From IMG/VR virus record IMGVR_UViG_3300045988_119411: a stretch of 64,000 bases of DNA; one strand, 5' to 3'. The position numbers and the translations under genes were made by a program. The DNA comes from a virus. This document shows, one piece after another, positions 1 through 32,795 of this stretch (the first letter of the stretch is position 1; each line of letters starts with the position of its first letter). The notes below the pieces were generated by a model. It searched no databases and was not told where the DNA came from. It saw only the letters and a list, made by a program, of their open reading frames with translations.

Positions 1-584
1 ATTGCCCATGTTTCTTGCAGCATGGCTCCATAGGTGTTTTCCGATTCAACAGTTCCAGCCATGCTATAAATACCGTCTGTGCCTTTTTCAAACGCACACT
101 CAGACATGGGGCAGAACTTTGCACTGGATGGCGATTTCAGATGGTTCTTTACACATTTTTCTGCGAGGACATAGACACCGGATTTGATCTCGTCGCTGCT
201 GTATTTGCTGCTGGAAGAGTAGGAATTCGTTTTTGAAGGAGAAACGGAAGGGGATTGACTGGATGTGCTTTGATTCTCGGAATGCAGAGCTTTTTTCTCG
301 TTGTTGTCGCTTAAAGTCATTGCAATCGCGACGGCAGCGAGAATAGCGGCGATTACAATAGCGATTACAAGACCTCTGCGGTCTTTTTTCTCGCTTGGGT
401 CAGACATATAATTCCGGCCGCCGGACGGCAGATCGGCTGGTTTCAGCAGGGGAGATTCTTTGCGCTCGGGCTGAGAAGTGACTTCCGGCTGAGGCAACTT
501 TTGGATTGGACAACCGCAGTGTGGGCATGCTGCTGCACGATCACTGACCTGTCCGCCGCATTCCGGGCATTGCATGAGAGCCAT
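1..584 (-). CDS. zinc-ribbon membrane protein, partial (3' end runs off window)
   Basis: Open minus-strand frame missing from the ORF track because no stop lies inside the window. ATG at 584-582 follows an AGGAGC RBS. N-term MALMQCPECGGQVSDRAAACPHCGCP (CPEC...CPHC), then hydrophobic helix GLVIAIVIAAILAAVAIAM. Confidence 0.6.
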   Translation of the reverse strand, partial: MALMQCPECGGQVSDRAAACPHCGCPIQKLPQPEVTSQPERKESPLLKPADLPSGGRNYMSDPSEKKDRRGLVIAIVIAAILAAVAIAMTLSDNNEKKALHSENQSTSSQSPSVSPSKTNSYSSSSKYSSDEIKSGVYVLAEKCVKNHLKSPSSAKFCPMSECAFEKGTDGIYSMAGTVESENTYGAMLQETWA

Positions 585-613
585 AATGATGCTCCTTTCT
601 GCTGTTCAGGGTG

Positions 614-841
614 TCAGATGCGGACTATGGCGCTTTTGCAGAGCTGCTTTTTGCCGTCCTTTTCGACGAGCTCCCGGTTCTGGGCGACAAGCTCCTTACC
701 GTAGGTGTCAAGGCCCGAGATGTCGTCCGGATCAGAATAAGCAAGAATGGCGGCCATGTCGCCGGGCTCCATGGGCTTGTTGGTTTTGTTCACGATGAAC
801 TGCCCACCGATTACGGTGTATTCGTTATGATCATAAAACAT
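614..841 (-). CDS. hypothetical protein (75 aa)
   Basis: ORF 614..883 trimmed to the ATG at 841, which follows an AAAAGGAGAA RBS. Starts MFYDHNEYTVIGG. Confidence 0.5.
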   Translation of the reverse strand: MFYDHNEYTVIGGQFIVNKTNKPMEPGDMAAILAYSDPDDISGLDTYGKELVAQNRELVEKDGKKQLCKSAIVRI

Positions 842-895
842 GGTTCTGTTCTCCTTTTTTGAAATTGTTTGAAAGCAAGTCAATATGGGCGCGTT

Positions 896-1255
896 CTATG
901 CTGCGGAAGCACAGAGGCTGGCGGCGTGGATCGCTTCGCTGATGAGGGCACTGGAGTCGATGCCAAGGATGCCGGAAATCGATGCGTAAATCGCATCGAT
1001 TTTCTCTGGTGGATAAATAGAGGCGTCATCCATTGTGCCGTTGCAGACGTACCAGCTAAAACCGTCGGCGAAAACGCAGACATAGATGCGGCTGCCAAAG
1101 TCACCGCAAGACAGATCGTCAACCTCGACAGTGACGAGTTGCCCGTCTACGTCGGCCAAGATGCCACCGGCATACTGCCAGTAGCCGCCGTTGTTGGCGT
1201 TGTCTGGATCATAGGTCGGATTTGTGGGATTGCCCCAGGCAGAGATTATCTTCAT
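896..1255 (-). CDS. hypothetical protein (119 aa)
   Basis: ORF track. AAGGAGG RBS upstream of the ATG at 1255. Confidence 0.6.
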   Translation of the reverse strand: MKIISAWGNPTNPTYDPDNANNGGYWQYAGGILADVDGQLVTVEVDDLSCGDFGSRIYVCVFADGFSWYVCNGTMDDASIYPPEKIDAIYASISGILGIDSSALISEAIHAASLCASAA

Positions 1256-1322
1256 CAGGATGATCCTCCTTGTTCATAGTTTAGCATGGTTTTTCTGAAT
1301 TTTCCAGAGGCTATTTGAAATT

Positions 1323-1916
1323 TTACACCTTTTCGCTGTTCAGAGTATATCCGGCGCGCTGCACCTGTTCAGTGCGATAGTAGATTCTGGAAGACCAGTC
1401 CACCCAGACCGGGCGCTTGCGCCCGTTGATGATGGTTTTTTCCAGTTCGAGTGGCTGGCCGTTCTTCTGCGTTGTGATCGTTGTGCCAAGTGGCGCGTTT
1501 TGCAGACTGTTCGGGTCCTTCCGGGCAGCCGCTGCTTTTCTGGCGTTCTCCCGGCAGGCGGCACGCCATTCGAGCGCCCATTCGTCGTCACGCGGCGAGA
1601 GTAGGTTCAAAACGGAAGTTGGACAGCTCCGCTCGGCTGGTCCCATGGATTCGTCCATGTCCTTAAAGCCAAAGTTGCAGTACTCGTTGGAGCAGACATG
1701 CGTCAGGCAGACGCCGGCGAAAACATACGGAGCCTGATTCGGTCTCGTCCGTTCGCAGGCTCCGTACCACGTCGAGCCGACCATGGCAGATTTCAGGACG
1801 CGGCAGCGGTCACCGGTTTCTTCGTTGTGCCAGGTATACAGGGCGTCGCATTCGGCCTTGCGGTCGATGCCACCCCGCCGGTCGTAGAAAATTGCCCGTT
1901 GATAAGTCCAGCCCAT
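1323..1916 (-). CDS. hypothetical protein (197 aa)
   Basis: ORF 1323..2009 trimmed to the MGWTYQRAIFYD start, which follows a GAAAGGAGAA RBS. Confidence 0.6.
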   Translation of the reverse strand: MGWTYQRAIFYDRRGGIDRKAECDALYTWHNEETGDRCRVLKSAMVGSTWYGACERTRPNQAPYVFAGVCLTHVCSNEYCNFGFKDMDESMGPAERSCPTSVLNLLSPRDDEWALEWRAACRENARKAAAARKDPNSLQNAPLGTTITTQKNGQPLELEKTIINGRKRPVWVDWSSRIYYRTEQVQRAGYTLNSEKV

Positions 1917-1930
1917 AATTTTCTCCTTTC

Positions 1931-2245
1931 TCAGTACGCGCGGCAGGTGTCGAAGCACCAGTGCAGGACTTTCCATGCGTGAACGTCCATGAATTTCTCG
2001 GAAAGCCACTGATCCAGCTGCTCAAAGAGTCCATGCGCGCCGCCCTGCGCCTTAATTTTGGTTTTCAGGAGATTATAGACGAACTCGCTGCCGCAGTCTT
2101 CAACGCGGACGGTCTTTGTCACGCCGTTTTTGCAGACGGTGAACTGCTCGCTGCTGCCGGGATAGATGGTAAAGCTCCAATCGGCAGCGTGGACGAGCGC
2201 GTCGGTTTCTTTGTCGTATCTGGTTTCTTCATAGATTCTGGTCAT
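1931..2245 (-). CDS. hypothetical protein (104 aa)
   Basis: ORF 1931..2275 trimmed to MTRIYEETRY with an AAGGAGG RBS. The longer start would sit directly against promoter-like motif copy 1. Confidence 0.55.
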   Translation of the reverse strand: MTRIYEETRYDKETDALVHAADWSFTIYPGSSEQFTVCKNGVTKTVRVEDCGSEFVYNLLKTKIKAQGGAHGLFEQLDQWLSEKFMDVHAWKVLHWCFDTCRAY

Positions 2246-2278
2246 GGATTCGGCCTCCTTTTTGATTTCACTCATAAT

Positions 2279-2304
2279 GCTACCGACAGGGGACGTTTTG
2301 TCCC
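2279..2304 (-). promoter_or_regulatory. promoter-like bipartite motif, copy 1
   Basis: Minus sense GGGACAAA-acgtcccctgtcg-GTAGCATTAT, about 33 nt upstream of the ATG at 2245. Confidence 0.5.
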
Positions 2305-2332
2305 GCTGCCGGTAGATTTTGCCGGAAATTTT

Positions 2333-2488
2333 TTATCCGGCATAGGAAAGTGCTGCCTCCAGCTGCTCGATTTCGTGCTGCCAAGCCGGGGCAAACGGAC
2401 TGTCCGGGCAATAGTTCAGCACTTCGTAAAGTTCCTCAAGTCGGTCAAGGATTCTGGATTCGCTGGGGATGTTCCATTTGATCTCCAT
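2333..2488 (-). CDS. small hypothetical protein (51 aa)
   Basis: Below the ORF-track size cutoff. MEIKWNIPSESRILDRLEELYEVLNYCPDSPFAPAWQHEIEQLEAALSYAG; GAAAGGAAC RBS. Confidence 0.4.
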   Translation of the reverse strand: MEIKWNIPSESRILDRLEELYEVLNYCPDSPFAPAWQHEIEQLEAALSYAG

Positions 2489-2546
2489 TTTCGTTCCTTT
2501 CTGCAAACGGGTTTCTCTTCCGGGACGTTTTATTTTGGGTCGATGT

Positions 2547-3209
2547 TCAGCAGCTTAAAATATCGTAGACTTCCTGTGATTCGTAACGGATGACGGCGCG
2601 GCCCTGCTCGTCGTCGCCGTCGTACATCGGCCCGCAGAAGTTTTTAATCTTCGGCGCGCCTTGCAACTCCGCGCGGCAGGAAACGCTGTGGAATTCTCCG
2701 GTGGTCTCGAATGCTTTTTTCAGATGCTCGACGGTTTCAAATGTTTCGACGATCATGCGCGGCCGCGGGTCGTCCGTGTTCATGCTGACAACCTTGTAGA
2801 CCTTACCCTTCTGCTGAATCTCGGACAGGTGAACGCGCTCGGATTCTTCGGAAATCTTCTGTTCCTTCGGGAAGCTATCGGTCATGGAGTAGAACAGGTT
2901 TTTATCAAAGCAGCAGTAGCTGCGCGGCTGCTCCCAGCCGGTTTCCGGCCAGCCGGAGAAAACAGCCAGCGGGCGCGTGCCATAGGTGCGGATGCCATAA
3001 ACCTGCCGTCCGCCGCGCTTTTTGAAGTAGATGGTCAGGGCTTCCTTGTACTGCGCATACGGGGCGATTTCCGCCTTTACGGCGGTGACGGGCAGGTGGT
3101 AGACGCCGCCAAAGTCGGATTCTGCGACGAGTGTCAGGCGCGGATTTTTGGATGCTGCCGCGCTGTTCACGGCGGCGGCGATGGTCTGGAAAATTTCAAG
3201 CTGTGTCAT
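2547..3209 (-). CDS. hypothetical protein (220 aa)
   Basis: ORF track. AGGAGG RBS before the ATG at 3209. Confidence 0.7.
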   Translation of the reverse strand: MTQLEIFQTIAAAVNSAAASKNPRLTLVAESDFGGVYHLPVTAVKAEIAPYAQYKEALTIYFKKRGGRQVYGIRTYGTRPLAVFSGWPETGWEQPRSYCCFDKNLFYSMTDSFPKEQKISEESERVHLSEIQQKGKVYKVVSMNTDDPRPRMIVETFETVEHLKKAFETTGEFHSVSCRAELQGAPKIKNFCGPMYDGDDEQGRAVIRYESQEVYDILSC

Positions 3210-3253
3210 TGTATGAAACCTCCTGTTTTCTTGGTTTTCTCTACACTTTTATT

Positions 3254-3279
3254 GCTACAGGGAAAGTACGTTTTGTCCC
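3254..3279 (-). promoter_or_regulatory. promoter-like bipartite motif, copy 2
   Basis: Minus sense GGGACAAA-acgtactttccct-GTAGCAATAAAAG, upstream of the ATG at 3209. Confidence 0.5.
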
Positions 3280-3305
3280 ACTTGCATTCATGTTTGTGTT
3301 TTTTG

Positions 3306-3671
3306 TTAGTGGACTGGACATTGGAACAGAACGCAAAAATCGGCTCTGCTGGCAATCTCGTTGATGCGCTTGGCGGTTGTGCTGCCGAGGGAAAACACGG
3401 CGATAAAGTTCACGTGGCAGTCGTCCGGGGTGAAGATCGGCTTGCACTCAACGCCCAGGGCGCGAAGATGGGTTGTGACGTTGGCGGCCTCTGTGACCTC
3501 GTGCAGCGCGTCGGCGTAGCACTCGCGGTAAAGGTCCACGCCGTATTTGTCGCGGATGGCGTCGAGCTGGTCCACGTCGAAAAGCTCGGTGAACGGCTCG
3601 TATTTGTGCGGGGTGGACAGGTGCGCGGCGATGATCTCGTTTCTGCACTCCCAATATCCGGCGGTTTTCAT
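3306..3671 (-). CDS. hypothetical protein (121 aa)
   Basis: ORF 3306..3893 trimmed to MKTAGYWECRNEII with a GAAAGGAGC RBS. The longer N-terminus overlaps the next gene in another frame. Confidence 0.55.
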   Translation of the reverse strand: MKTAGYWECRNEIIAAHLSTPHKYEPFTELFDVDQLDAIRDKYGVDLYRECYADALHEVTEAANVTTHLRALGVECKPIFTPDDCHVNFIAVFSLGSTTAKRINEIASRADFCVLFQCPVH

Positions 3672-3877
3672 GGTTGCGCTCCTTTCTGCGCGTTTCTCGC
3701 GGCGCGGTATGTTTCGTAGACCTGGGCGGCGGGAAATTCTTTCATGCCACAGTTCCATTTTGGGCGCGGGGTCTTTCGGAGATAGACGGTCTCGCCGCCG
3801 TCGTATTCCAAATACCATTTTTCCAGTGTTCCGTCGCGGTTGATCGTGTATCTTGTGGGGGTTGCGGTCGTGGCCAT
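3668..3877 (-). CDS. hypothetical protein (69 aa)
   Basis: ORF track. ATGA start/stop overlap with the downstream gene; GAAAGGAC RBS. Confidence 0.5.
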   Translation of the reverse strand: MATTATPTRYTINRDGTLEKWYLEYDGGETVYLRKTPRPKWNCGMKEFPAAQVYETYRAARNAQKGAQP

Positions 3878-3938
3878 AGTGTTGTCCTTTCATGCCCTCG
3901 TGACCTCCGGGGCGGGCTGTTCGGCTTTCAACCTTCCG

Positions 3939-4163
3939 TTAGGGTTTGAACACGACGCGCACGCCGCGATTTTGCAGCATGGCGATATACAGAAAAAATT
4001 CTGTGCTGATCTCTGCGGTGTCGGTACATCCGATTGTTTCCGGTTCCCGGATAAGCGCCGGATAAAATTTGTCAAGCTCTCCGTCCGGGGACATGATCGC
4101 GTAGCCGTCAAAGCCGCGCATTTTTGTGCGGAAAACTTCGCGGGTGATCTGTTCTTTCCTCAT
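3939..4163 (-). CDS. hypothetical protein (74 aa)
   Basis: ORF track. AGGAGGAAA RBS. Confidence 0.55.
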   Translation of the reverse strand: MRKEQITREVFRTKMRGFDGYAIMSPDGELDKFYPALIREPETIGCTDTAEISTEFFLYIAMLQNRGVRVVFKP

Positions 4164-4192
4164 GGGGTTTCCTCCTGTTCTGTTCCTCCTGT

Positions 4193-4405
4193 TCAGATTA
4201 TGTAGATGTTGATTTTTTCAAGCTCGTCCTGCTCGTATGCTGCTCCAACAGGCTCGAGCGCTGCCCATGCCGCAATCTCGATGGCTTTTTCCCAGGAAAA
4301 GCCTATTCCGTTCAGATACTCAGCGTTGTACTGTTCGTCATCGCAGGAATGATAGTGATTGATGTTTCCCGTGTTTATGACGAGCGTGCCGTAGTCTCCA
4401 TTCAT
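4193..4405 (-). CDS. hypothetical protein (70 aa)
   Basis: ORF track. AGGAGGCAT RBS. Confidence 0.55.
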   Translation of the reverse strand: MNGDYGTLVINTGNINHYHSCDDEQYNAEYLNGIGFSWEKAIEIAAWAALEPVGAAYEQDELEKINIYII

Positions 4406-4421
4406 TTTTTATGCCTCCTGT

Positions 4422-4580
4422 TTAGATGTAATACCATACGATAAACTTGTGTTCTGTTCCGTCTGCCGATGTCCACGGGGTCAGGTACGCCTTGCGTCGC
4501 TGCTTTTTTCGCGCCGCCACAAATGCGGCGGCTTGCTGTTCTGTGCTGAAAAATTCAAAGGTTTTGCGGTACTGATTCAT
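4422..4580 (-). CDS. small hypothetical protein (52 aa)
   Basis: Below the ORF-track cutoff. MNQYRKTFEFFSTEQQAAAFVAARKKQRRKAYLTPWTSADGTEHKFIVWYYI; GAGGAATCACC RBS. Confidence 0.4.
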   Translation of the reverse strand: MNQYRKTFEFFSTEQQAAAFVAARKKQRRKAYLTPWTSADGTEHKFIVWYYI

Positions 4581-4592
4581 GGTGATTCCTCG

Positions 4593-4946
4593 CTATGCAA
4601 TCTGCTCGGCAGGCTGTGCAAATTCCTGCGAGATTTTGAAAAGCATCATTTTTTTGAGCGCCTGACGGCTCATGGTTTTTTCTTCGCAGCTGTTCGGACG
4701 GTCCCAGACGCGGACGCGAAAAACGCCGTTGTCGATGTCTGCGATCTCGCGGTAGATGCAGACCGTCACACCGCCTGAGAAGCAGAGCTTTAAGGCGTTT
4801 AACGTGCTTGCGTCGCCCCGGAAAATCTTCATCCCTGCATCATACAGCTGCGCGGCGGTTTCCTCGGAATATGCGAGGGCGTGATGCTCGACGTTTTCAA
4901 AACAGCCGAAGACATTCTTCACGTCGTAATTTGCGATAAATTCCAT
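4593..4946 (-). CDS. hypothetical protein (117 aa)
   Basis: ORF 4593..4964 trimmed to MEFIANYDVKNVF with a GAGGGGG RBS. Confidence 0.55.
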   Translation of the reverse strand: MEFIANYDVKNVFGCFENVEHHALAYSEETAAQLYDAGMKIFRGDASTLNALKLCFSGGVTVCIYREIADIDNGVFRVRVWDRPNSCEEKTMSRQALKKMMLFKISQEFAQPAEQIA

Positions 4947-4960
4947 TGTGACACCCCCTC

Positions 4961-5059
4961 TCACAGAATGAATTCGATCAGGGTATCCGCCCCGAGCATG
5001 AGATAGAACAGGGCGATGACGGCGATGGCCGTCAGGATTTTTTGAAGTTTGATTTTCAT
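4961..5059 (-). CDS. small hydrophobic peptide (32 aa)
   Basis: MKIKLQKILTAIAVIALFYLMLGADTLIEFIL; GGAGGAACGGCT RBS. First gene after motif copy 3. Confidence 0.35.
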   Translation of the reverse strand: MKIKLQKILTAIAVIALFYLMLGADTLIEFIL

Positions 5060-5097
5060 AGCCGTTCCTCCGTGGTCGGTTTCTTTTCGCTGTTATT

Positions 5098-5122
5098 GCT
5101 ACCGGAGATTTGAATTTGTCCC
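5098..5122 (-). promoter_or_regulatory. promoter-like bipartite motif, copy 3
   Basis: Minus sense GGGACAAA-ttcaaatctccg-GTAGCAATAACAG. Confidence 0.5.
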
Positions 5123-5255
5123 GTGAATTTGAAATTTTTCTCTGATTTCAGTATGACATGCGGGAAAAGTGAATTTTGATACAGTCGAACGCACAAAGAA
5201 CGCACGAAAAAAACGCACGGATTGTTTCCGTGCGTTTTTTGTTCGTTCCTCAGAC

Positions 5256-5600
5256 TCAGGCCGTCAGCGGCTGGACCTGCGCGGCCGTGAAGAAGTGGGA
5301 AAGTTTCATGCGGCAGTAGCCGCTCGATTCGGCCTCGTCGCCCTCCTGCGGCTCGTCGGATTCTTTGCGCTTGCTGCCGATGTACTTCCAGATCGGGAAG
5401 GACGCAATGGAGTGCTCGCCCTTGCGGACGATATAGCCGCGCTGCTTCCAGGCGTTGAAGGTGTGAATCTCCTCGGGGAGCTCCAGCTGCTCGGTCTGGC
5501 CGTTCTCGTCTACGATGTCGATGAAATGGCCTGTGCCTTTGAGAATGCCGTCGTTCATCAGCCGGATGGATTCGTCAAGAATGATTGCTGCGTTAGTCAT
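5256..5600 (-). CDS. hypothetical protein, possible ArdC-N-like ssDNA-binding domain
   Basis: ORF track; GGAGGTAC RBS. Segment HTFNAWKQRGYIVRKGEHSIASFPIWKY resembles the TF..W...G..V+KGEK core of ArdC N-terminal domains (from memory only). Acidic tail. Confidence 0.45.
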   Translation of the reverse strand: MTNAAIILDESIRLMNDGILKGTGHFIDIVDENGQTEQLELPEEIHTFNAWKQRGYIVRKGEHSIASFPIWKYIGSKRKESDEPQEGDEAESSGYCRMKLSHFFTAAQVQPLTA

Positions 5601-5640
5601 GAGTAAGTACCTCCGTTTGTTTCATTTTTCTGTCTTTGTT

Positions 5641-5665
5641 GCTACCTGAAATTTCGATTTGTCCT
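5641..5665 (-). promoter_or_regulatory. promoter-like bipartite motif, copy 4
   Basis: Minus sense aGGACAAA-tcgaaatttcag-GTAGCAACAAAGA (one mismatch in the upstream box). Confidence 0.45.
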
Positions 5666-5687
5666 GGCAATGCCGGGCTTTTTTATT
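5663..5687 (+). terminator. plus-strand-oriented hairpin + T-run
   Basis: CCTGG-caatg-CCGGG followed by CTTTTTTATT. Weak 5-bp stem; overlaps the upstream box of motif copy 4. Confidence 0.3.
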
Positions 5688-6060
5688 GCAGATATTCCGC
5701 AGCTGTTTCGACGGCCCAGCGGATGGCCGACTCGAAGGCGCGGATAAACTCCTTGGTGCGCATCGAGCCTCCCGCGAAGGTGTTTCCGACGCTCACGGCT
5801 GCGTCGTAGTATTTGCAGCCTCCGTCGGAGTGCTCAGCAATTTGGGCCCGGACCTCGCGCCCGGCAGGCGTGCGGCCAATCAGTTTAGAGACCCAGTTCC
5901 CGCCAGCCTGCCAGCCGTCTGGCGTATACATCCTCGATTCGAGATAGTCACGCGGGAAATCGACTGTGATTTTTCCGCTTTTGTAGTCGTAGGCCTTGCA
6001 GTCCGAAAACATCTTTTTGTAGACCCGATAGGGGATCGTGCGGCTTGCTGCTTTTTTCAT
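5683..6060 (-). CDS. hypothetical protein (125 aa)
   Basis: ORF track. AAAGGAGTCC RBS. Confidence 0.65.
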   Translation of the reverse strand: MKKAASRTIPYRVYKKMFSDCKAYDYKSGKITVDFPRDYLESRMYTPDGWQAGGNWVSKLIGRTPAGREVRAQIAEHSDGGCKYYDAAVSVGNTFAGGSMRTKEFIRAFESAIRWAVETAAEYLQ

Positions 6061-6092
6061 CTTGGAGGACTCCTTTATGTTTTTTCTTTATA

Positions 6093-6117
6093 GCTACCTC
6101 AAAATTGGATTTGTCCC
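6093..6117 (-). promoter_or_regulatory. promoter-like bipartite motif, copy 5
   Basis: Minus sense GGGACAAA-tccaattttgag-GTAGCTATAAAGA. Confidence 0.5.
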
Positions 6118-6160
6118 GCTTGGTTCGGAAATTTTCTCGTTTTTTGGGAAAAAAAGAAAG

Positions 6161-6183
6161 CCGGGGTTTCTCCCGGTTTTTCT
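6161..6183. terminator. short GC hairpin with T-runs on both strands (bidirectional terminator candidate)
   Basis: CCGGG-gtttct-CCCGG. TTTTTCT follows on the plus strand and CTTTCTTTTTTT on the minus strand, downstream of gene 6253..6471. Confidence 0.4.
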
Positions 6184-6252
6184 GTCGCTTGGTTTTTCAC
6201 GTTTTTGGGCGCTGCTGGTTGGTTCGGATTCTTTGCGGTTTTTCGGCGACAT

Positions 6253-6471
6253 TCAGACTGGCGTTTTTGCTCCGCGGATCAGGAAGCGGAAATTCCAGAA
6301 CACCGCCTCCCATTTCAGGCGGTCGATGAATTTCTCCGCTTGCTGGAATGTTTGGAACCGCTCCTGATGCGCCATAATCGAGCCGGTAATTGCAGACGGC
6401 CACGTATAGGCAACGCCGTAGCCGATGGACGTTTTGACGAGCTGCGCCTTGACTGTTGTAACATGTTTCAT
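6253..6471 (-). CDS. hypothetical protein (72 aa)
   Basis: ORF track. GAGGTACACACC RBS. Confidence 0.5.
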   Translation of the reverse strand: MKHVTTVKAQLVKTSIGYGVAYTWPSAITGSIMAHQERFQTFQQAEKFIDRLKWEAVFWNFRFLIRGAKTPV

Positions 6472-6505
6472 GGTGTGTACCTCGTTTCTGTTCTTTGACT
6501 TTGAA

Positions 6506-6530
6506 GCTACCGTATTTTCCGATTTGTCCC
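6506..6530 (-). promoter_or_regulatory. promoter-like bipartite motif, copy 6
   Basis: Minus sense GGGACAAA-tcggaaaatacg-GTAGCTTCAAAGT. Confidence 0.5.
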
Positions 6531-6550
6531 GCCGAAGGCGGGATTTTTTT
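6528..6550 (+). terminator. plus-strand-oriented intrinsic terminator
   Basis: CCCGCC-gaa-GGCGGG followed by A + T7. The stem shares CCC with motif copy 6. Confidence 0.5.
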
Positions 6551-6553
6551 GAC

Positions 6554-6895
6554 CTATTTTCGATAGACGCAGCCGGTCCACGCCTGACAGGTCGTGCCGC
6601 TGCACGTGCTTCCGCGCCGCTTGCAGTCTACGCAGATCGGATTCAGCTGTTCAGCGTCCTTTTCCAGCCATTTGACCGACTTGATATACTCGCAGATTTC
6701 CGGATCGTAGTTGTTGGCCGCGATGTATGCGCAGAGTTCGCGCTGGACGTCCGCTTCCTCGCCGCCGTCCATTGCTTCGGCGATTCTCTGGGCGATGTCC
6801 GGGGCCGTTTCGGCGTAGCTTACCACGCCAATGTAAAAATCGAATGGATTGTAGAAAATACCGTCCCTGCGGTCGAGAATGAGATCGATGATCAT
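6554..6895 (-). CDS. hypothetical protein (113 aa), Cys-rich C-terminus
   Basis: ORF track. AAAGGAGCCC RBS. Confidence 0.65.
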   Translation of the reverse strand: MIIDLILDRRDGIFYNPFDFYIGVVSYAETAPDIAQRIAEAMDGGEEADVQRELCAYIAANNYDPEICEYIKSVKWLEKDAEQLNPICVDCKRRGSTCSGTTCQAWTGCVYRK

Positions 6896-6927
6896 CTTTT
6901 TGGGCTCCTTTTTGTTTTTCCTTTATA

Positions 6928-6952
6928 GCTACACGATTTCTGCGTTTGTCCC
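6928..6952 (-). promoter_or_regulatory. promoter-like bipartite motif, copy 7
   Basis: Minus sense GGGACAAA-cgcagaaatcgt-GTAGCTATAAAGG. Confidence 0.5.
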
Positions 6953-6954
6953 GC

Positions 6955-6989
6955 AAAAAAGTAAAAAAAGCGCCCGAGCGATCGGGCGC
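6955..6989 (-). terminator. intrinsic terminator of the HTH gene transcript
   Basis: Perfect 8-bp stem GCGCCCGA-(4 nt)-TCGGGCGC, followed in minus sense by TTTTTTTACTTTTTT. Confidence 0.8.
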
Positions 6990-6990
6990 T

Positions 6991-7081
6991 GCTGTTCAGA
7001 ATATTCAAGTTGGTGCTGTTCAGGAGCTGCGGAGCGCTGCTGTTCAGGTTTTCCCCGGAAATGAGAATGGGCGCTGTTCAG
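6991..7081. repeat. four direct copies of GCTGTTCAG
   Basis: Copies start at 6991, 7015, 7039 and 7073 (spacing 24, 24, 34 bp). They lie between the stop of gene 7115..7417 and its terminator. Confidence 0.7.
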
Positions 7082-7114
7082 CAATTTCGAAAGTTGGCCG
7101 GAAGGTCCGGAATT

Positions 7115-7417
7115 TCAGGCGTTGCCGGATGCGTCCGCGGGATCAGCAGGGGATGTGGATGCGGGAGCGGATGACGGAGAAGTTGCATCATGGGCCGGGA
7201 TGGTCTGCATGATGGTCTCCCCGTCCGGCAGGACGAAACCCACCACCAGGCCGCAGCCGTAAACGTCCGCGATCTGCTCCAGGTCCGCGACGCTCCAGGT
7301 ATTCCGCTTTAGGCGCTGGCTGGCATTTGCGCGGGACGTGCCGAGGCGCGCGGCCATGTCCGCCGCCGTGCTGTCACACTCCAAAAGCATCCGCTTTATC
7401 ATCTTTGAAATATCCAT
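7115..7417 (-). CDS. helix-turn-helix DNA-binding protein (Cro/CI-like regulator)
   Basis: ORF track; AAAGGAGCGG RBS. HTH-like STAADMAARLGTSRANASQRLKRNTWSVADLEQIADVYG; Pro/Ser/Ala-rich tail. Divergent from the rightward operon. Confidence 0.65.
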   Translation of the reverse strand: MDISKMIKRMLLECDSTAADMAARLGTSRANASQRLKRNTWSVADLEQIADVYGCGLVVGFVLPDGETIMQTIPAHDATSPSSAPASTSPADPADASGNA

Positions 7418-7454
7418 ATCGTATCCGCTCCTTTGCTGGCGATCTGCCTATACT

Positions 7455-7480
7455 GCTACCGCGTCGGCGTCCTTTGTCCC
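7455..7480 (-). promoter_or_regulatory. promoter-like bipartite motif, copy 8
   Basis: Minus sense GGGACAAA-ggacgccgacgcg-GTAGCAGTATAGG, upstream of the ATG at 7417. Confidence 0.5.
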
Positions 7481-7497
7481 ATATTGTATATCGTTTC

Positions 7498-7566
7498 GTT
7501 AACTTTGTCAATTCCTACAATTTATTTGTTAATTATTTGGTTAATTCAACGATTTACAAAGTTAAC
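7498..7566. promoter_or_regulatory. operator-like inverted repeat plus GTTAA repeats
   Basis: GTTAACTTTGT (7498-7508) and ACAAAGTTAAC (7556-7566) form a perfect 11-bp inverted repeat. GTTAATT also occurs at 7528 and 7540. Confidence 0.5.
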
Positions 7567-7581
7567 TTCAGGGTGTACAAT
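7553..7581 (+). promoter_or_regulatory. sigmaA-type promoter of the rightward operon
   Basis: TTTACA-17 bp-TACAAT. The right arm of the inverted repeat lies inside the spacer. Confidence 0.6.
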
Positions 7582-7646: not shown

Positions 7647-8405
7647 ATGAAAATGAACGCCACTGAAATCGCCGCCCGCCGCGAGCAGATCAAGACCACC
7701 CGCGCGAACATCAAAACCGTGGTAAACATCTACCGCGAAACCAGCGACCGGACCCCCGCCGAGACCGTCGCCGCTATCGTGGAACGCCTCGGATACGATA
7801 CCGCCCGCGAGGCAATCGCCGAGATCATCAACACCGTGGGCGAGTGGGACGGCAGAATCTACCCCAGCAGCCGCGAGTGGGCCGCCACCATCGAGAACGC
7901 CGCGACCCGTGACGAGCTGGAAGCAAAAAGCATCTACCAGCCCGCCGAAATCCACCCCGCGCACATCAACCAGCTTGCGCAGGCTATGAGCAAGTACACG
8001 CCGCCCGCACCGGAGCCCAGCGAACCCAGCGCCCCGGCGGCGTCTCCGATCCGGCTGAACGTCGAGCAGTTCGGCGGCGTACAGCTTCCGCACCGCGTCG
8101 CCGTGTACGTTCCCAGCACGCAGGGCCCTGCAGAGACCACCGACAACGCCAAGCAGGTGCAGCGCGTCGCCCGAGAGTTTGCCGAGATGTTCGGCGGCGC
8201 GACCGCCACCACCGCCCGCGGCTTTTGGGTGAGCGACGCCGCCGGTCTGGTTGCCGAGTCCGTGACCATCGTTTATGCCAGTTGCACCGATCGTCAGTAT
8301 CACGAGCAGGTGCCGGAAGTGATCCGCATCGCCCAGCGGATCAAAGAGGAAATGCAGCAGGAGGCGGTAAGCATCGAGCTTGACGGAATCCTGTATCTCG
8401 TCTGA
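7647..8405 (+). CDS. hypothetical protein (252 aa)
   Basis: ORF track. AAAGGATACGAT RBS. First gene of the rightward operon. Confidence 0.7.
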   Translation: MKMNATEIAARREQIKTTRANIKTVVNIYRETSDRTPAETVAAIVERLGYDTAREAIAEIINTVGEWDGRIYPSSREWAATIENAATRDELEAKSIYQPAEIHPAHINQLAQAMSKYTPPAPEPSEPSAPAASPIRLNVEQFGGVQLPHRVAVYVPSTQGPAETTDNAKQVQRVAREFAEMFGGATATTARGFWVSDAAGLVAESVTIVYASCTDRQYHEQVPEVIRIAQRIKEEMQQEAVSIELDGILYLV

Positions 8406-8463: not shown

Positions 8464-8685
8464 ATGCAGAAAATCAATATCAGCGGCACGGACCGCCCGC
8501 AGTGGTACACGCCCGAAGAGATCCGCGCAGCAGCCGCCGAGGGCCTGCCGCTCCGCCTGAAGGGCGGGAATCATCATCCCGATATTCTGTGCCGTCTCGC
8601 TGCGAATTGCGGCGGATGGTGTACCGTCGTCACCGATAGCGGCGCGATCCTGCACGCATGGGCCGGAGAGCTTGCCGCAGCCTGA
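8464..8685 (+). CDS. hypothetical protein (73 aa)
   Basis: ORF 8380..8685 trimmed to MQKINISGTDRPQWY with a GAAAGGAGAAAAA RBS. Confidence 0.5.
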   Translation: MQKINISGTDRPQWYTPEEIRAAAAEGLPLRLKGGNHHPDILCRLAANCGGWCTVVTDSGAILHAWAGELAAA

Positions 8686-8768
8686 GAGCAGCCGGACACC
8701 TTGACGGGCCGCACCGTAAAGCGACCCGATCCCATCAAAATTTTGACGATGTAAAGGAGATCAATACC

Positions 8769-9482
8769 ATGAAGAAAACCGCCATCATGTCCCAGGCTTG
8801 GAGCCTGTACCGCCAGACCGTCACCGAGTACCCCGAGACCCGCAGCCGCGCCCAGTTTGCCATCTGCCTGAAAGAGGCGCACCGCGCCGCCAGAGCGGCC
8901 CAGACGGCCCGCTGCGAGTGGGACGCCATGACCGGCGAGGAGAAATATTCCGCCCTGATCCGCATGACGTGGACCATGAAGCACCGCGCCGAGGCGCAGG
9001 GCCGGGACATGGACACCGATTGGATCGTTACCCAGGACGACGCGCAGACCGTCGCATCGGACGCTTATTGCCGCATCTTTGCCGCCATGGACCGCAACGA
9101 GCAGAGAGAGGAGCCACGCCCCCTAGCCTATCTCATGCTTTCCGCGTGCGCCCAGGCAGCGCACAGCATCAGCCGCGCCGAGCGCCGCCATGCCAACGCA
9201 TGCCGCCAGACCGTCACCGACGAGGACCAGACTCAGACCGTGATTGATATTTCCGCCAGCGTCACCGCCGAGCCGATCACGCAGGGCCCCGAGGCCGCAG
9301 CCATCACCGCCGAGACCATCCGCGAGGCCATCGCCACCGACACGGACGGCATTATCGTGCAGCAGCTCGCAGCCGGTTACACCGTCCGAGACATCGCCGC
9401 CGTGCTCGCTATGAGCAAGAGCAGCGTTCAAAGACGTATCGACGCAATCCGCGCCCGCTACCGTCAGGCCCTCGCAGGCTGA
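8769..9482 (+). CDS. sigma-70 family (ECF-like) factor candidate with N-terminal extension
   Basis: ORF 8658..9482 trimmed to MKKTAIMSQ with a TAAAGGAGA RBS. Region-2-like DDAQTVASDAYCRIFAAMDR...AQAAHSISRAERRH. Region-4 HTH-like QQLAAGYTVRDIAAVLAMSKSSVQRRIDAIRARYRQAL. Confidence 0.5.
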   Translation: MKKTAIMSQAWSLYRQTVTEYPETRSRAQFAICLKEAHRAARAAQTARCEWDAMTGEEKYSALIRMTWTMKHRAEAQGRDMDTDWIVTQDDAQTVASDAYCRIFAAMDRNEQREEPRPLAYLMLSACAQAAHSISRAERRHANACRQTVTDEDQTQTVIDISASVTAEPITQGPEAAAITAETIREAIATDTDGIIVQQLAAGYTVRDIAAVLAMSKSSVQRRIDAIRARYRQALAG

Positions 9483-10581
9483 CAGCAGCCAGCCAAGAAA
9501 TACCGCACCCCCAGCCGCCCCGGCATAGCCCGGAGCGGCTTTCCTGCGCCCAAAACGCCCCGCCCAGCCCCAAGCGGGCAACAACCAGCCAAGACCATCC
9601 GAGCCGCCCAAACGCCAGCCAGACCGCCCCGCGCAAAGCAGAGAGGCCCGAAACAGCCCCGCACCTACTCTTTATTATAATCGCGCGCGTGCGCGCGTGT
9701 ACTCCGCGCGGGCGAGCATACTATAGTCTAAACTCATATCATACCAACCCAAGCAGACCAGCCACACGCAGCCAAGCACCGGCAAAGAGAAGACCATGCA
9801 GGCCAACAGAGGAAAGGGAAAGGGGACGGGGAAAAGTGTTCGCGGCTTCGCCGTGTTCAGGCCGCGAACCAAGGCGGGGGACGCCTTGACCGCCAGCATC
9901 AGACCGGCAGCGCATCCGCCCCAGCTCCGCAGCATCTCCGAGCCAAACCGAGGCGGACCGGCAGCAGCCCGGAGAAGTCCGCCGAATTTGGCAGAAATGC
10001 AGGATATGCAAGAGAACTTGCAGAAATTCCGGGATGTCGTTTACTTTCCTATGCAGAATGTAAACGACAACGGCCAAGAAATGCAAGACACCATGCAGAA
10101 ATGCAAGACCCCGCCCCACTTTACAAACCTGAGAGGCGCTTTTTTCTGGAGAAGGGCAATAGCTCTTCTCCCCCCATCCATGTTCCACCTCGGCTCCCAT
10201 CCGAGATACCACCGCCTAGTAAACCTGTTTTCCACCATAATATATTTCACATCGCGCCAGCCAAAGACCATCGAAGTCTCCGGCCGGCGCTTTTCTTATG
10301 CGCAAGGTGGGAGGGGGCGTACTTTTCAAACCCGAGATGAAATTTCGAAAGTCGGAAAACGAAAAGGCCAAAAAATAAAATTTGCGCGGTTGCCTTACGG
10401 CAACGAAGCAGATACCCTTCGGGTCTATGGCAGGGAAGGGTTGGTTATGGTGCAGCAGCGAAGTAAGGCGGAGTCGGCGGCGCGGTAGCCGGGAGTGTAA
10501 CATAAATCGTTTTGGTCGGATGGTACGATGAGAATAGAGAAACAAATCCGCAGAAAAACGGATGAAATATTGGAGGAAGAA
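9483..10581. other. ~1.1 kb non-coding region: C-rich skewed tract, alternating CG run, iteron-like repeats, hairpins (origin / ncRNA candidate)
   Basis: Only one unconvincing ORF. Details are given in the findings. Confidence 0.5.
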
Positions 10582-20983: not shown

Positions 20984-20986
20984 TTT

Positions 20987-21022
20987 TGGTCGGAGTGTCG
21001 GGATTCGAACCCGACACCAATC
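20987..21022 (-). other. partial tRNA gene: T-arm, 3' acceptor strand, discriminator and CCA only (candidate att core)
   Basis: Minus sense ...gattggtg TCGGG TTCGAAT CCCGA CACTCCG A CCA. Sequence upstream does not fold into anticodon or D arms. Confidence 0.7.
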
Positions 21023-21054: not shown

Positions 21055-22233
21055 TTATCGTGCCGATTTTCGTGCCGATTTTGAAGGACTTTTGGTTCCT
21101 GATTTTTTCTCCTGCGTGGTTTCGGTGGAACCCTGAAGATAGAATCTACGCATCTTATTGGTTGCAGCGTTCTTATCTTTTGCAGCTTCACGCAAATAGC
21201 ATTCATGAACGACTTTAATATCATTCCATCCGCCGACACGCATGGTGCGTTCTTCGCTCCAACCGAGATGGTAAGCAAGGGAACAGAAAGATCGACGTAG
21301 ACCATGAACGCCAACTTGCGGCAAATTGTTTTCTATGCAAATTGCGTTGATCCTGCGAGTAAGAGTATTAGGATAACAGTCAATTAGTGGACCTTCGTCT
21401 GGAATGACTTCAAGGAGCCTAGGAACGAGAACGGGTACCGGCCGAGTGGATTTTTCAGATTTATTCGTATCCTTGTGAACAAGTTTTCCGTTTTCGTCGT
21501 AAACGACGGCACCAGACACAGAAAGATACTCGGAGCCTTTGATCTCAAAATGCAAACTGTCACGGGTTAATGCCATGATTTCTGAGCGACGCAAAGAATG
21601 CAGTGCCAAAAGCGCACCGAGCTCAATCGGCTTTTCTCGAATAGCCTTCACAAAGACAAGGATTTGCTCATAGTCGAGAGTGGGCTGGCCTCCTTTCTTG
21701 AAGGCAGGGAGGGTGACATTCGGGACATCAAACTCCAAATAGTTCATCGTGGCTGTCACAAGTGCCCACACATTGCAAACAGTTTTTGGGGAACAATGCT
21801 TCAGCTCTTCGCCAATGGCGATCTGCCACTCACTCTTTGTAATTCCAGAAAGGTCACGGCCCATATAATCGAGAAAATGATTTTTTCGATATGACATATA
21901 GTTGCGGCGGGTAGAAGGAGAAAGAGAAGGGCCTCGCTCTGCAATCATTTTGTCAATGGCTTTTCCGAGCGTGATTCTCGATGCATTCTTCTTTTTCTCG
22001 ATGAAGCCGGCGCGGATGGCTTTGGCCTTGGCAATGCACAGCTCTTTTGTGGGCTCCGTGATGCTCTGCTTTTCGGCATCCAAATAAATCCGCCAGTTTC
22101 CACTAGCAAGTTTTCGCGGAGACGGGACTTTGAGCGCATCTTTCTTCTTGCGCTCTTTGAGCTGCTTTTCTCCGCACCAATTACAGAACATGGAATTATC
22201 TTCGATTTCACGGCCGCAGGATTTACACTTCAT
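21055..22233 (-). CDS. int: tyrosine integrase with N-terminal zinc ribbon
   Basis: ORF 21055..22389 trimmed to MKCKSCGREIEDNSMFCNWCG. Catalytic pattern ALHSLRRSE, HGLRRSF, GGWNDIKVVHECY. Confidence 0.9.
   Translation of the reverse strand: MKCKSCGREIEDNSMFCNWCGEKQLKERKKKDALKVPSPRKLASGNWRIYLDAEKQSITEPTKELCIAKAKAIRAGFIEKKKNASRITLGKAIDKMIAERGPSLSPSTRRNYMSYRKNHFLDYMGRDLSGITKSEWQIAIGEELKHCSPKTVCNVWALVTATMNYLEFDVPNVTLPAFKKGGQPTLDYEQILVFVKAIREKPIELGALLALHSLRRSEIMALTRDSLHFEIKGSEYLSVSGAVVYDENGKLVHKDTNKSEKSTRPVPVLVPRLLEVIPDEGPLIDCYPNTLTRRINAICIENNLPQVGVHGLRRSFCSLAYHLGWSEERTMRVGGWNDIKVVHECYLREAAKDKNAATNKMRRFYLQGSTETTQEKKSGTKSPSKSARKSAR
21059..21082. repeat. tandem 12-mer CGTGCCGATTTT x2 (right copy)
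   Basis: Identical to 20819..20842. Lies in the last codons (KSARKSAR) of the integrase ORF. Confidence 0.8.
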
Positions 22234-22408
22234 GACGTTGCTGCTCCTGAAGCTGTTGTAGAGCGTCATCCCGCTCCTGCATAACGCGAAGGAATTCCTG
22301 CTTGAGAGCATAAAAGGTGTCGGCGCAGATGCCAAGCTCTGGGGCCTTCTTGATGTTTTCGTCGAGTGCGTCCAGCACGAGCTTGTCACGTTCAGTATAA
22401 GGTTTCAA
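22223..22408 (-). CDS. hypothetical helical protein (61 aa) upstream of int
   Basis: ORF track. TTG start. Overlaps the int start by 11 nt. Confidence 0.4.
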   Translation of the reverse strand: MKPYTERDKLVLDALDENIKKAPELGICADTFYALKQEFLRVMQERDDALQQLQEQQRHEV

Positions 22409-22467: not shown

Positions 22468-23091
22468 CTATTTTTTCTTGTTTTTGTTTAGAACTTTGAA
22501 GATTGTAATTATGACTGTGATAACGGCTGCGGCGATGATAAGGATGATGATCCACGAAAAGACGCTGAGATTTCCAAACTGGATCAGTCCGGCATCTTTG
22601 ATCTGGAAGTCGATAATAAGATAGACAATCAGAAAGAATGCCAAGATGATGCTCATTGCGAGCTGCGCGTATTCTACGGGGCGGTGTGATGTAGACTGTG
22701 TCGTCTTGTATTCGTCGAGTTTTTTCAGACCATCAGCTGTTGCAGTGGCTGTATTCACCATGCCCTGTAGACGCTGAATTTCTGCGTCTTTCTGTGCGTT
22801 GTCAAGTTCTAGGGCATGAATCTGTTTTCTTAATTCTGAAGCGTCTTCACTCCGAATAGGTAGACCACAGAGTTCATCGAGAGACAGGCCCATGGTATCG
22901 GCCATAGCTGCGCAGTTGAACAGAAGCGGATTCGCCTGCGCGCCGGCGTTGATTCGACTGACGTTAGAATATGGGACACCTGACTTTTCGGCGAGGGCGT
23001 TGACTGTTAGCCCAAGCTCAATCCTTCTCTGCTTAATTTTTTCTGAGAAGGAATCGAAATACGGGGATAGCTTTTCCGTTGACGTTGACAT
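22468..23091 (-). CDS. membrane-anchored XRE-family HTH protein
   Basis: ORF 22468..23259 trimmed to MSTSTEKLSPYF with a GGAGGCTCGAA RBS. HTH IKQRRIELGLTVNALAEKSGVPYSNVSRI, then a coiled coil, then two C-terminal TM helices. Confidence 0.7.
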   Translation of the reverse strand: MSTSTEKLSPYFDSFSEKIKQRRIELGLTVNALAEKSGVPYSNVSRINAGAQANPLLFNCAAMADTMGLSLDELCGLPIRSEDASELRKQIHALELDNAQKDAEIQRLQGMVNTATATADGLKKLDEYKTTQSTSHRPVEYAQLAMSIILAFFLIVYLIIDFQIKDAGLIQFGNLSVFSWIIILIIAAAVITVIITIFKVLNKNKKK

Positions 23092-23187
23092 TTCGAGCCT
23101 CCAAAAGCAGAATTTGAAATTTAGGGTAGTGTTTGGGCAGAATAGGAGAGTGTTTTGAAATCCGAGGTGTGGACTTCTGGAAACAAA

Positions 23188-23214
23188 ATCTGCTACGATA
23201 GAGGCGTAGCAGAT
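23188..23214. promoter_or_regulatory. perfect palindrome ATCTGCTACG-N7-CGTAGCAGAT
   Basis: 10-bp arms. A third half-site ATCTGCTA lies at 23230-23237. Confidence 0.6.
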
Positions 23215-23335
23215 GACAGGTAATACGGGATCTGCTATAGGCTCCGTCGTCGGTGGCACGGCGGCGGAGCCGCTTTCAACGCTGATGCAATTATCTCAGC
23301 ACACCGGAAAGACTCCTTTCATGCATGGCTCTTGT

Positions 23336-32766: not shown

Positions 32767-32795
32767 TTGCATTTTTATTGGAAGTGTGGTATAAT
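32767..32795 (+). promoter_or_regulatory. strong sigmaA-type late-operon promoter
   Basis: TTGCAT-17 bp-TATAAT with a TGg extended -10. Confidence 0.7.

Follow-up and report, generated by a model that had tools for sequence, protein, structure and literature searches.

Bacillus phage SPO1 produces, from host sigmaA promoters, a phage sigma factor (gp28) that redirects the host core RNA polymerase to bipartite middle promoters, whose boxes are AGGAGA and TTTNTTT. Bacterial sigma factors of the extracytoplasmic function (ECF, or group 4) type, such as E. coli sigmaE, B. subtilis SigW and M. tuberculosis SigH, consist of a sigma2 domain, a linker and a sigma4 domain, and read highly specific promoters. 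Phage morons, which are cassettes of promoter, gene and terminator, normally rely on host promoters and are active in the prophage state. The early-to-middle sigma switch of SPO1 has been summarized (PMC13401047). For coliphage phiEco32 and Salmonella phage 7-11, a phage sigma factor and its promoters have been predicted from the genome sequence; the sigma gene, too, has phage promoters ahead of it, and the host polymerase is shut off by an anti-sigma protein (PMC4331800). We have analyzed a 64,000-nucleotide stretch of the virus record IMGVR_UViG_3300045988_119411 (hereafter, the window), in which a two-box motif occurs eight times along an arm of about 20 small leftward genes (positions 1-7417), beside a rightward operon (from 7647) that includes a gene for a sigma-like protein (8769-9482). 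We consider it probable that the eight sites are phage-specific promoters read by the host core RNA polymerase together with this phage sigma factor. The features discussed are listed in Table 1.

A pattern scan of the whole window for GGACAAA-N11-14-GTAGC returned exactly eight matches, all on the minus strand (2279-2303, 3254-3278, 5098-5121, 5641-5664, 6093-6116, 6506-6529, 6928-6951 and 7455-7479). In dinucleotide-preserving shuffles of the window, the chance level was a mean of 0.02 matches, with a maximum of 1 per shuffle. These are the eight sites that a first-pass annotation of the window had listed, and its statement that the motif is confined to them is borne out as well, because the scan found no plus-strand copy and none elsewhere in the 64 kb. 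An isolated GGGACAAA is present at 56911(+), without a GTAG partner. The left box, GGGACAAA, opens seven of the eight copies; the site at 5665, which begins AGGACAAA, is the sole mismatching copy, as had been noted. Five copies have a spacer of 12 nucleotides (nt) and three have one of 13 nt, which reproduces the earlier count. The right-hand box fared less well: GTAGC is present in all eight copies and is the sole invariant right-hand part, whereas the proposed 12-nt consensus GTAGC(A/T)(A/T)TAAAG fits in full just two of the eight, the seven nucleotides after GTAGC being simply A/T-rich.

All eight copies are intergenic and have the same orientation as the genes downstream. A ribosome-binding site (RBS) precedes each ATG, and the ATG lies 37-49 nt from the G of GTAG, in agreement with the 33-46 nt that the first-pass annotation had measured from the end of the box. 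The same annotation had set the motif apart from canonical sigmaA promoters, and a promoter scan concurs: it found no TTGACA/TATAAT-like pair at seven of the eight motif-bearing intergenic regions, the sole pair being one that adjoins copy 1. The best internal sigmaA reading of the motif, GGGACA...TATAAA, needs a spacer of 19-20 nt, and its key final T is replaced by A in 93% of instances. Among the three sigmaA promoters that had been used for comparison, those at 7553 and 24059 were recovered and that at 32767 was not returned; the leftward promoter at 7511-7483, which abuts copy 1, was absent from the earlier list. The likeness to ECF promoters that had been pointed out holds for the geometry, because the C of GGGAC lies 15-16 nt from the G of GTAG, and fails for the boxes themselves, which are considered below.

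The motif is conserved in related phages. We fetched 36 loci around homologs of the 8769-9482 gene, 32 of them from IMG/VR (L001-L032) and the others from ENA assemblies (L033-L036). All 26 loci for which the full 10-kb upstream arm was available carry co-oriented GGGACAAA-N12/13-GTAG(A/C) in their version of the leftward arm, where the motif and the sigma gene are on opposite strands; the first-pass annotation had named presence in such arms as something that its interpretation depended on. Most of these loci have 6-11 copies, and L024, L025 and L031 have just one or two. Overall, about 40 related contigs from gut phages have 8-20 copies in the same orientation. A position weight matrix was built from 101 distinct instances, in which GGGAC and GTAG were preset by the scan and hence are not independent results. 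Beyond the preset boxes, the matrix exhibits conservation of AAA after GGGAC, of the base after GTAG (A in 80% of instances, C in 19%), of positions out to about +17 (GTAG-A-W-a-T-A-A-A-G-r-T-A-g-A-A), and of an AAAWTTTTT tract at a fixed 11-18 nt upstream of GGGAC. This tract resembles the UP-element consensus of E. coli. Of the 101 spacers, 54 are 12 nt long and 47 are 13 nt long, and their sequence is weakly conserved. A looser scan of the arms returned almost exclusively these motif forms.

Across the family, we collected 163 distinct instances. A recognizable start codon follows in 154 of them; in 129 of these 154 it lies 30-69 nt downstream of GTAG, and 93% precede an open reading frame (ORF) of at least 30 amino acids (aa). 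In IMG/VR, 41 stretches were matched by a 19-base version of the motif, and all of these except L080 (a single match) hold at least two co-oriented looser copies, on contigs of this phage family; on larger contigs, some arrays reach at least 14 kb. The same version gave just eight scattered single matches in 185,579 species-representative genomes.

A homolog of the sigma gene is present in 15 of the 41 motif-bearing IMG/VR stretches, and eight more hold just the adjacent 252-aa gene, at or near an edge. Wherever the fetched DNA extends far enough, the motif array adjoins the sigma operon. The rightward trio was detected in the 36 loci with the sigma gene in 36, the 252-aa gene in 34 and the 73-aa gene in 31. 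These last two genes were not seen beside the sigma gene in more distant subfamilies, where the arm's divergent neighbor is the sigma gene itself. The sigma factor is therefore the sole candidate factor that lies beside every arm examined.

To follow the boxes over a greater evolutionary distance, we compared phages whose sigma homologs are 36-40% identical to that of the window, making up about six subfamilies. At about 60% identity, the motif is still GGGACAAA-N12/13-GTAGA. Homolog P0124 (locus L086, 40% identity) accompanies three copies of GGGACAAA-N13-GT(T/A)(A/T)C, and P0125 (L092) one copy of GGGACAAA-N13-GTCAC. With P0135 (L095, 37%), there are two copies of CGGACA(AA/TT)-N12-TGGCAC; with P0128 (L087, 36%), four of GGTTCTAAA-N12-CACGCA; with P0129 (L090, 38%), ten of GGTTGCCAAA-N12-TGGCGTATA; and with P0133 (L094, 38%), two of TTTCCATT-N12/13-GGCGTTAT. 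The -10 box of some distant subfamilies contains GGCGTAT. The boxes thus differ between subfamilies, while the layout is kept: an A/T tract, a -35-like box, a spacer of 12-13 nt, a -10-like box, a short leader and leftward small genes. Where several copies are readable (L087 and L090), the AAAAAATTTTTT tract and the spacer length are constant. Constancy of the tract is expected if the same host core enzyme, by way of its alpha subunits, serves different sigma factors.

Changes in the -35-like box are largely accompanied by changes in the protein. The sigma4 recognition helix of the window sigma and of P0124 reads SKSxVxRRI, P0100 and P0125 have close variants of it, and all of these pair with GGGACAAA; sigma factors paired with GGTT-type or TTTCCATT boxes have the helix S(Q/H)xA(V/L/I)(S/N)KR(L/I) instead. 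No relatives of P0128 and P0129 were found in IMG/VR. The GGTTGCCAAA-type motif has single chance matches only in IMG/VR, and in metagenomes its multi-copy arrays occur in only two contigs of one assembly. One of these contigs is L106, whose sigma is 99.6% identical to that of L090.

The product of 8769-9482 opens with an extension of about 85 aa, after which come a sigma2-like domain (residues ~86-148), a disordered linker and a sigma4 helix-turn-helix (HTH; ~174-236). The extra N-terminal domain is conserved. The protein family comprises about 300 clusters at 50% identity. The protein matched PHROG 1740, "RNA polymerase sigma factor", with an E value of 1.4e-5. A profile built from 63 family members matched E. 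coli sigmaE (1or7) with an E value of 2.8e-5, aligning profile positions 95-239 to sigmaE residues 45-186. This span takes in the sigma2 and sigma4 regions, and CnrH and AlgU were matched similarly. An AlphaFold2 model (mean predicted local distance difference test score, pLDDT, of 81) consists of a three-helix N-terminal extension, a helical domain (~89-149), a disordered linker (149-173) and a C-terminal HTH. When this model was compared with the PDB by using Foldseek, the top 24 matches were sigma-factor chains or complexes with probabilities of 0.75-0.99, about 20 of them ECF (M. tuberculosis SigH and SigL, sigmaE, CnrH, AlgU and SigK), and alignments to full-length ECF sigma factors extended over 170-208 columns. 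ECF structures matched by fold or profile include 1or7, 6jcx and 2h27.

The C-terminal domain is recognizable as a -35-reading HTH of the sigma4 type by several routes. Pfam Sigma70_ECF matches 32 of the 63 members and Sigma70_r4_2 matches 23; profile alignments to sigmaE and sigma-H cover the domain; and it superimposes on sigmaE region 4 bound to -35 DNA (2h27) with a target template-modeling (TM) score of 0.65 and a root-mean-square deviation of 2.3 A. Based on these profiles and the predicted fold, we conclude that the protein is probably a remote ECF-type sigma factor with an extra N-terminal domain, lying below curated thresholds. No homolog was found in GTDB representative genomes. The sole GenBank phage record with a homolog is MT835520, from human faeces (44.8% identity, unannotated), in which simple scans revealed no clear motif array.

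Taken together, the sites have two boxes joined by a spacer of constrained length, they are intergenic, co-oriented with and a short distance from the next start codon, and they are conserved while varying with the sigma factor. The idea in the first-pass annotation of a dedicated regulon, possibly driven by the 8769-9482 protein, therefore has computational support from the anatomy of the sites, the related phages, the adjacency, the profile and fold matches and the box changes. We infer that transcription starts at these sites and that this protein is the factor involved; on the best reading of the sequence, the sites would be middle-type promoters for small accessory gene cassettes.

The events could unfold as follows. 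Host sigmaA polymerase would fire the back-to-back promoters at 7511-7483 (leftward, toward the HTH regulator gene) and 7553-7581 (rightward), and the rightward transcript would carry the 252-aa gene, the 73-aa gene, a RAGATH-5 RNA and the sigma gene. The sigma4 HTH would then read GGGACAAA as a -35-like element, and the sigma2-like domain would read GTAGC, 12-13 nt away, as a -10-like element. The upstream AAAWTTTTT tract may assist by serving as an UP element that touches the alpha subunits. The predicted start point lies within the conserved AAAG, about 7-10 nt beyond GTAG, and would give leaders of 25-40 nt. At least eight units of small accessory genes would be driven in this way, several with their own terminator and one with an ArdC-like anti-restriction product.

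Several observations weigh against this scheme. Some of them concern the protein. Its match to Pfam Sigma70_ECF (E value 5e-4) scores 20.5 bits, under the cut-off of 21.1, and it scores 16.3 against a cut-off of 42.9 for TIGR02937 and 19.9 against 126.4 for TIGR02985, although both TIGR alignments start at residue 88-92 and run to 235. For the sigma2-like domain, the evidence consists of the profile and fold alignments, while Sigma70_r2 matches 1 of the 63 members. Given this figure, and Foldseek E values of just ~1e-2, an HTH activator that resembles a sigma factor is a possibility to be reckoned with, in our judgment a minority one. Other observations concern the DNA. The canonical ECF consensus (AAC at -35 and CGT at -10, ~16-17 nt apart) is not matched by the GGGAC and GTAGC boxes of the window. 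The window scan found no motif copy upstream of the sigma operon or on the plus strand, so the autoregulation typical of ECF sigma factors is absent; an autoregulated operon with a co-transcribed anti-sigma gene, which is typical of ECF factors and not obligatory, was not found here. Copy 1 coincides with the start point of a sigmaA promoter, where operators are also typically found. Assessment of the adjacency is complicated because the motif-bearing contigs are all related, and it therefore reflects shared ancestry in part. Finally, the subfamily comparison involves about six subfamilies, several of them represented by one to four promoter copies on short contigs; P0135, which has a near-identical -35 box and a dissimilar helix, breaks the helix-to-box pattern; and the box changes could track a host factor instead.

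This last point leads to the possibility that the promoters are read by an alternative host sigma factor (ECF or another of group 3 or 4), and that the 8769-9482 protein acts otherwise, for example by activating other genes. The geometry of the sites is generic for alternative sigma factors, and such a factor would also suit both the sigma operon that lacks a motif copy and box differences that follow different hosts. We nevertheless regard this explanation as unlikely, because the 19-base motif is nearly absent from the representative bacterial genomes, arrays occur only in phage arms that adjoin the phage sigma gene, the phage sigma4 helix largely changes along with the -35 box, and early reliance on a stress-gated host sigma factor would be an unusual design for 8-20 promoters. 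Similarly improbable is that the motif is an operator or activator site for a phage regulator, either the HTH protein of 7115-7417 or the 8769-9482 protein as an HTH activator of sigmaA polymerase. The position of copy 1 is compatible with such a site, the C-terminal HTH of 8769-9482 also matches generic HTH families (HTH_23, AsnC-type and GerE), and the A/T-rich stretch after GTAG sometimes reads TATAAA. However, seven of the eight copies have no nearby sigmaA -35/-10 pair, and use of TATAAA as a -10 element runs into the long spacer and the altered final T noted above. Two invariant boxes 12/13 nt apart, a set distance to the start codon and a UP-like tract constitute core promoter anatomy, and the profile and fold matches of 8769-9482 span the sigma2 region in addition to the HTH. 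The version in which the motif is the operator of the 7115-7417 protein, which the first-pass annotation had raised, is rejected: a homolog of that protein is detectable in 1 of the 36 loci, compared with the motif in all 26 full arms, and so it cannot explain the motif.

A role in RNA, as a processing site, a nut-like antitermination element or a structured leader within a long transcript from the sigmaA promoter at 7511, was also evaluated. That promoter would transcribe copy 1, and conservation runs ~17 nt beyond GTAG, into the would-be RNA. Yet RNAalifold predicted no base pairs, and no consensus structure, over the eight copies, and none of these sites is matched by an Rfam family, the RAGATH-5 RNA being the sole match in the first 10 kb. 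Moreover, the spacer varies in sequence and not in length, which is a DNA-helix constraint, several copies directly follow intrinsic terminators that would end a long transcript, and no role in RNA is obvious for the conserved A/T tract that precedes the -35 box. We rejected this explanation, which appears very improbable. Promoters for a phage single-subunit or multisubunit RNA polymerase were likewise rejected, because a scan of the large window ORFs revealed no polymerase gene, and a two-box motif with its 12/13-nt spacer does not suit such promoters either. We thus favor promoters read with the phage sigma factor.

Table 1. Features of the window discussed in the text. Promoter copies are putative, and are numbered from the sigma operon outward along the arm.
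Feature	Position	Strand	Description and evidence
Divergent ECF-like sigma gene	8769..9482	+	237 aa; proposed cognate factor; profile and predicted fold
Promoter copy 1	7455..7480	-	GGGACAAA-N13-GTAGC; 42 nt before ATG of HTH gene; abuts sigmaA promoter
Promoter copy 2	6928..6952	-	GGGACAAA-N12-GTAGC; 37 nt before ATG 6895; after terminator 6990-6969
Promoter copy 3	6506..6530	-	N12; 39 nt before ATG 6471; A-tract and hairpin overlap GGGAC
Promoter copy 4	6093..6117	-	N12; 37 nt before ATG 6060; after terminator 6176-6161
Promoter copy 5	5641..5665	-	AGGACAAA-N12-GTAGC; 45 nt before ATG 5600 (gene with ArdC-N-like domain)
Promoter copy 6	5098..5122	-	N12; 43 nt before ATG 5059; heads ~7 small genes down to 3306
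Promoter copy 7	3254..3279	-	N13; 49 nt before ATG 3209
Promoter copy 8	2279..2304	-	N13; 38 nt before ATG 2245; heads last unit, to left end of window
SigmaA-type promoter of rightward sigma operon	7553..7581	+	TTTACA-17-TACAAT; promoter scan
SigmaA-type promoter of leftward HTH gene	7483..7511	-	TTGACA-17-TACAAT; 11/12 match; promoter scan
Intrinsic terminator	6969..6990	-	Closes HTH unit, just upstream of copy 2; terminator scan
Intrinsic terminator	6161..6176	-	Upstream of copy 4; terminator scan
Hairpin and T-run	5207..5235	-	cgcacgg-aaacaat-ccgtgcg-ttttttt; closes ArdC-like unit, upstream of copy 6; read from sequence
Cro/CI-type HTH regulator	7115..7417	-	First leftward gene; homolog detectable in 1/36 related loci
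Rightward operon gene 1	7647..8405	+	252 aa; co-conserved with sigma gene, 34/36 loci
Rightward operon gene 2	8464..8685	+	73 aa; co-conserved with sigma gene, 31/36 loci
RAGATH-5 RNA (Rfam RF02685)	8692..8741	+	Leader directly upstream of sigma gene; 57.9 bits vs gathering score 50
tRNA 3'-end fragment	~20985-21015	-	Beside integrase stop
Integrase	21055-22389	-	Family scans of window proteins
CI-like repressor	22468-23259	-	Family scans of window proteins

The tandem arrangement of a sigmaA promoter and a motif copy before the first leftward gene is also found in L033, L001, L012 and L013. Within the two sigmaA promoters of the window, an 11-nt box, ACAAAGTTAAC (core palindrome GTTAAC), is identical at 7497-7507 (-) and 7556-7566 (+), extending from the -35 hexamer into the spacer. 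This is likely an operator pair for a switch, and the 7115-7417 HTH protein is perhaps what binds it.

Copies 1, 3 and 5 each head one small gene, which is followed by a terminator-like hairpin. The copy 7 cassette, including its promoter, was found again in many related loci, and cassettes are gained and lost between related phages with their order kept. The idea that the boxes are recombination junctions for cassette exchange was not supported: in a test that covered homology breakpoints inside motif-bearing intergenic regions, 6 of 18 breakpoints fell on the motif, compared with 21% expected (p = 0.16).

At copies 3, 5 and 8 (6526-6544, 5663-5677 and 2309-2325), an A-tract with a GC-rich hairpin abuts or overlaps GGGAC. 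These hairpins score as plus-strand intrinsic terminators, and no plus-strand genes are located there; they may block antisense read-through or belong to the UP-like region. Another recurring element is CTGAACAGC(A), which occurs four times on the minus strand within 6990-7115, where non-coding DNA separates the HTH gene from its terminator. The word is present at many gene junctions of the arm, too (for example, near 610, 1340, 4190 and 6650), where a TGA stop is followed by ACAG and an RBS. Words like CTGAACAGC are enriched in L096, and "gaacag" precedes many RBSs in L087 and L090.

The products of the arm are small and mostly without a family assignment; one has an ArdC-N-like anti-restriction domain and another a DUF6927 domain, which suggests accessory or anti-defense functions for the arm genes. 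The 252-aa and 73-aa proteins had no family assignment above threshold in scans of Pfam, PHROG and NCBIfam, and could be partners or regulators of the sigma factor, such as an anti-sigma. The rightward block from 7647 holds, besides the sigma-like gene, genes for a clamp-like protein, SSB, and DnaD- and DnaC-like loaders. Farther along are an integrase and a CI-like repressor, and beyond the latter lie homologs of Rha/Ant, RecE, RecT, SSB and RusA, a portal protein, a tape measure (the 1727-aa protein of the window) and tail genes.

Immediately after the sigma gene, 9483-9800 is non-coding and GC-rich (~65%), and contains alternating CGCGCG tracts that have ATTATAAT and ATACTATAGT on their flanks. 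In L094 and L095, too, the sigma gene is followed by tracts of this kind. The stretch in the window could be an origin or a regulatory region.

The tRNA 3' fragment beside the integrase gene is likely the attP core. This fragment prompted us to consider two tandem mobile elements, with the arm and sigma gene forming a satellite beside a prophage. That arrangement is countered by the L033 contig, with which window positions 1-23 kb are collinear across the integrase junction at 72-93% identity, by L001, which is collinear to the end of its locus, and by more distant relatives, which are phage contigs of ~109 kb. A single temperate gut phage whose attP adjoins the integrase is thus the most likely identity of the window. 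Around the same junction, the repeat CGTGCCGATTTTCGTGCCGATTTT occurs at ~20820 and again at ~21060, and 20815-21082 matches L001 and L033 in inverted orientation. L033, a close relative, has an integrase next to its CI-like repressor (L033 18835-19941) and, at the outer end of its leftward arm, a second gene of the Phage_integrase family (L033 1-403); the window ends short of the corresponding position. A 47-nt match to Faecalibacterium phage FP_Toutatis, as well as a protein of a metagenome-assembled genome labeled Oscillospiraceae, point to Oscillospiraceae as the probable host group.

That 47-nt match, at 97.9% identity, falls in the region of the RAGATH-5 RNA. RAGATH-5 is found in the same place in L001 (9924-9973), L033 (9924-9973), L003 (9922-9977), L007 (9921-9976) and L034 (9924-9979), five loci whose sigma factors are 56-94% identical. 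We know of no function for RAGATH-5, and a literature search found no specific work on it. Its conserved place in the leader of the sigma gene suggests that it may control this gene post-transcriptionally. A broader and more speculative idea, which we hold only tentatively, is that the family consists of mutually orthogonal sigma/promoter pairs, in which every sigma subfamily has -35 and -10 boxes of its own on a constant scaffold of UP-like tract and 12/13-nt spacer, that these pairs gate swappable single-gene cassettes for anti-defense or host takeover, and that RAGATH-5 may control the sigma factor. In that case, switching a phage sigma factor would be the first function to which RAGATH-5 could be linked.

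The analysis assigns a predicted function to proteins that are widespread in human-gut phages and whose family is nameless or called "hypothetical protein" in its sources, and defines a putative regulon for the 8769-9482 family from sequence alone. It also outlines a candidate transcription program for uncultured Oscillospiraceae-type phages, which would proceed from sigmaA early promoters through a phage sigma factor to dense, dedicated promoters before small accessory genes. The box changes across subfamilies provide a compact natural data set on how the specificity of ECF-like sigma factors changes, and the family is a source of candidate orthogonal sigma/promoter parts for engineering gut Firmicutes. 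Our literature search found no description of this sigma family or its motif.

With SPO1, the window phage shares a predicted phage sigma factor and a putative phage-specific class of bipartite promoters, as well as small genes dense in promoters and terminators like those of the SPO1 host-takeover region. However, the protein is unrelated in sequence to gp28 and the boxes differ. The dense small-gene region of SPO1 uses sigmaA early promoters, whereas the array of the window carries a phage-specific motif; and the window phage, which encodes an integrase and a CI-like repressor, is temperate. As in phiEco32 and 7-11, there is a phage factor that appears, from sequence and model, to belong to the sigma-70 family, and conserved phage-specific promoter candidates were found by comparing intergenic regions and are kept in relatives. 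Unlike those phages, the sigma operon lacks the motif, no anti-sigma has been identified, and the host phylum and the motif are different; the 8-20 promoter copies per genome in this family are also far above the number in phiEco32 and 7-11.

Bacterial ECF sigma factors resemble the 8769-9482 protein in their two-domain architecture, and their promoters resemble the sites described here in having a G-rich -35 box ending in AC, the C of which is followed at ~16 nt by a short -10 box. They differ from it in that the window protein has an N-terminal domain of ~85 aa, sub-threshold scores, GGGAC/GTAG boxes, a phage genome as its source, no autoregulation and no recognizable anti-sigma partner. The single-gene cassettes headed by copies 1, 3 and 5, with their terminator-like hairpins, are like morons, as is the gain and loss of cassettes in a kept order; unlike morons, all of the cassettes share one phage-specific promoter class. 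The sigma family and the promoter sequence are new, while the strategy they would serve is classical, so that the proposed mechanism extends the known picture of phage sigma factors and does not overturn it.

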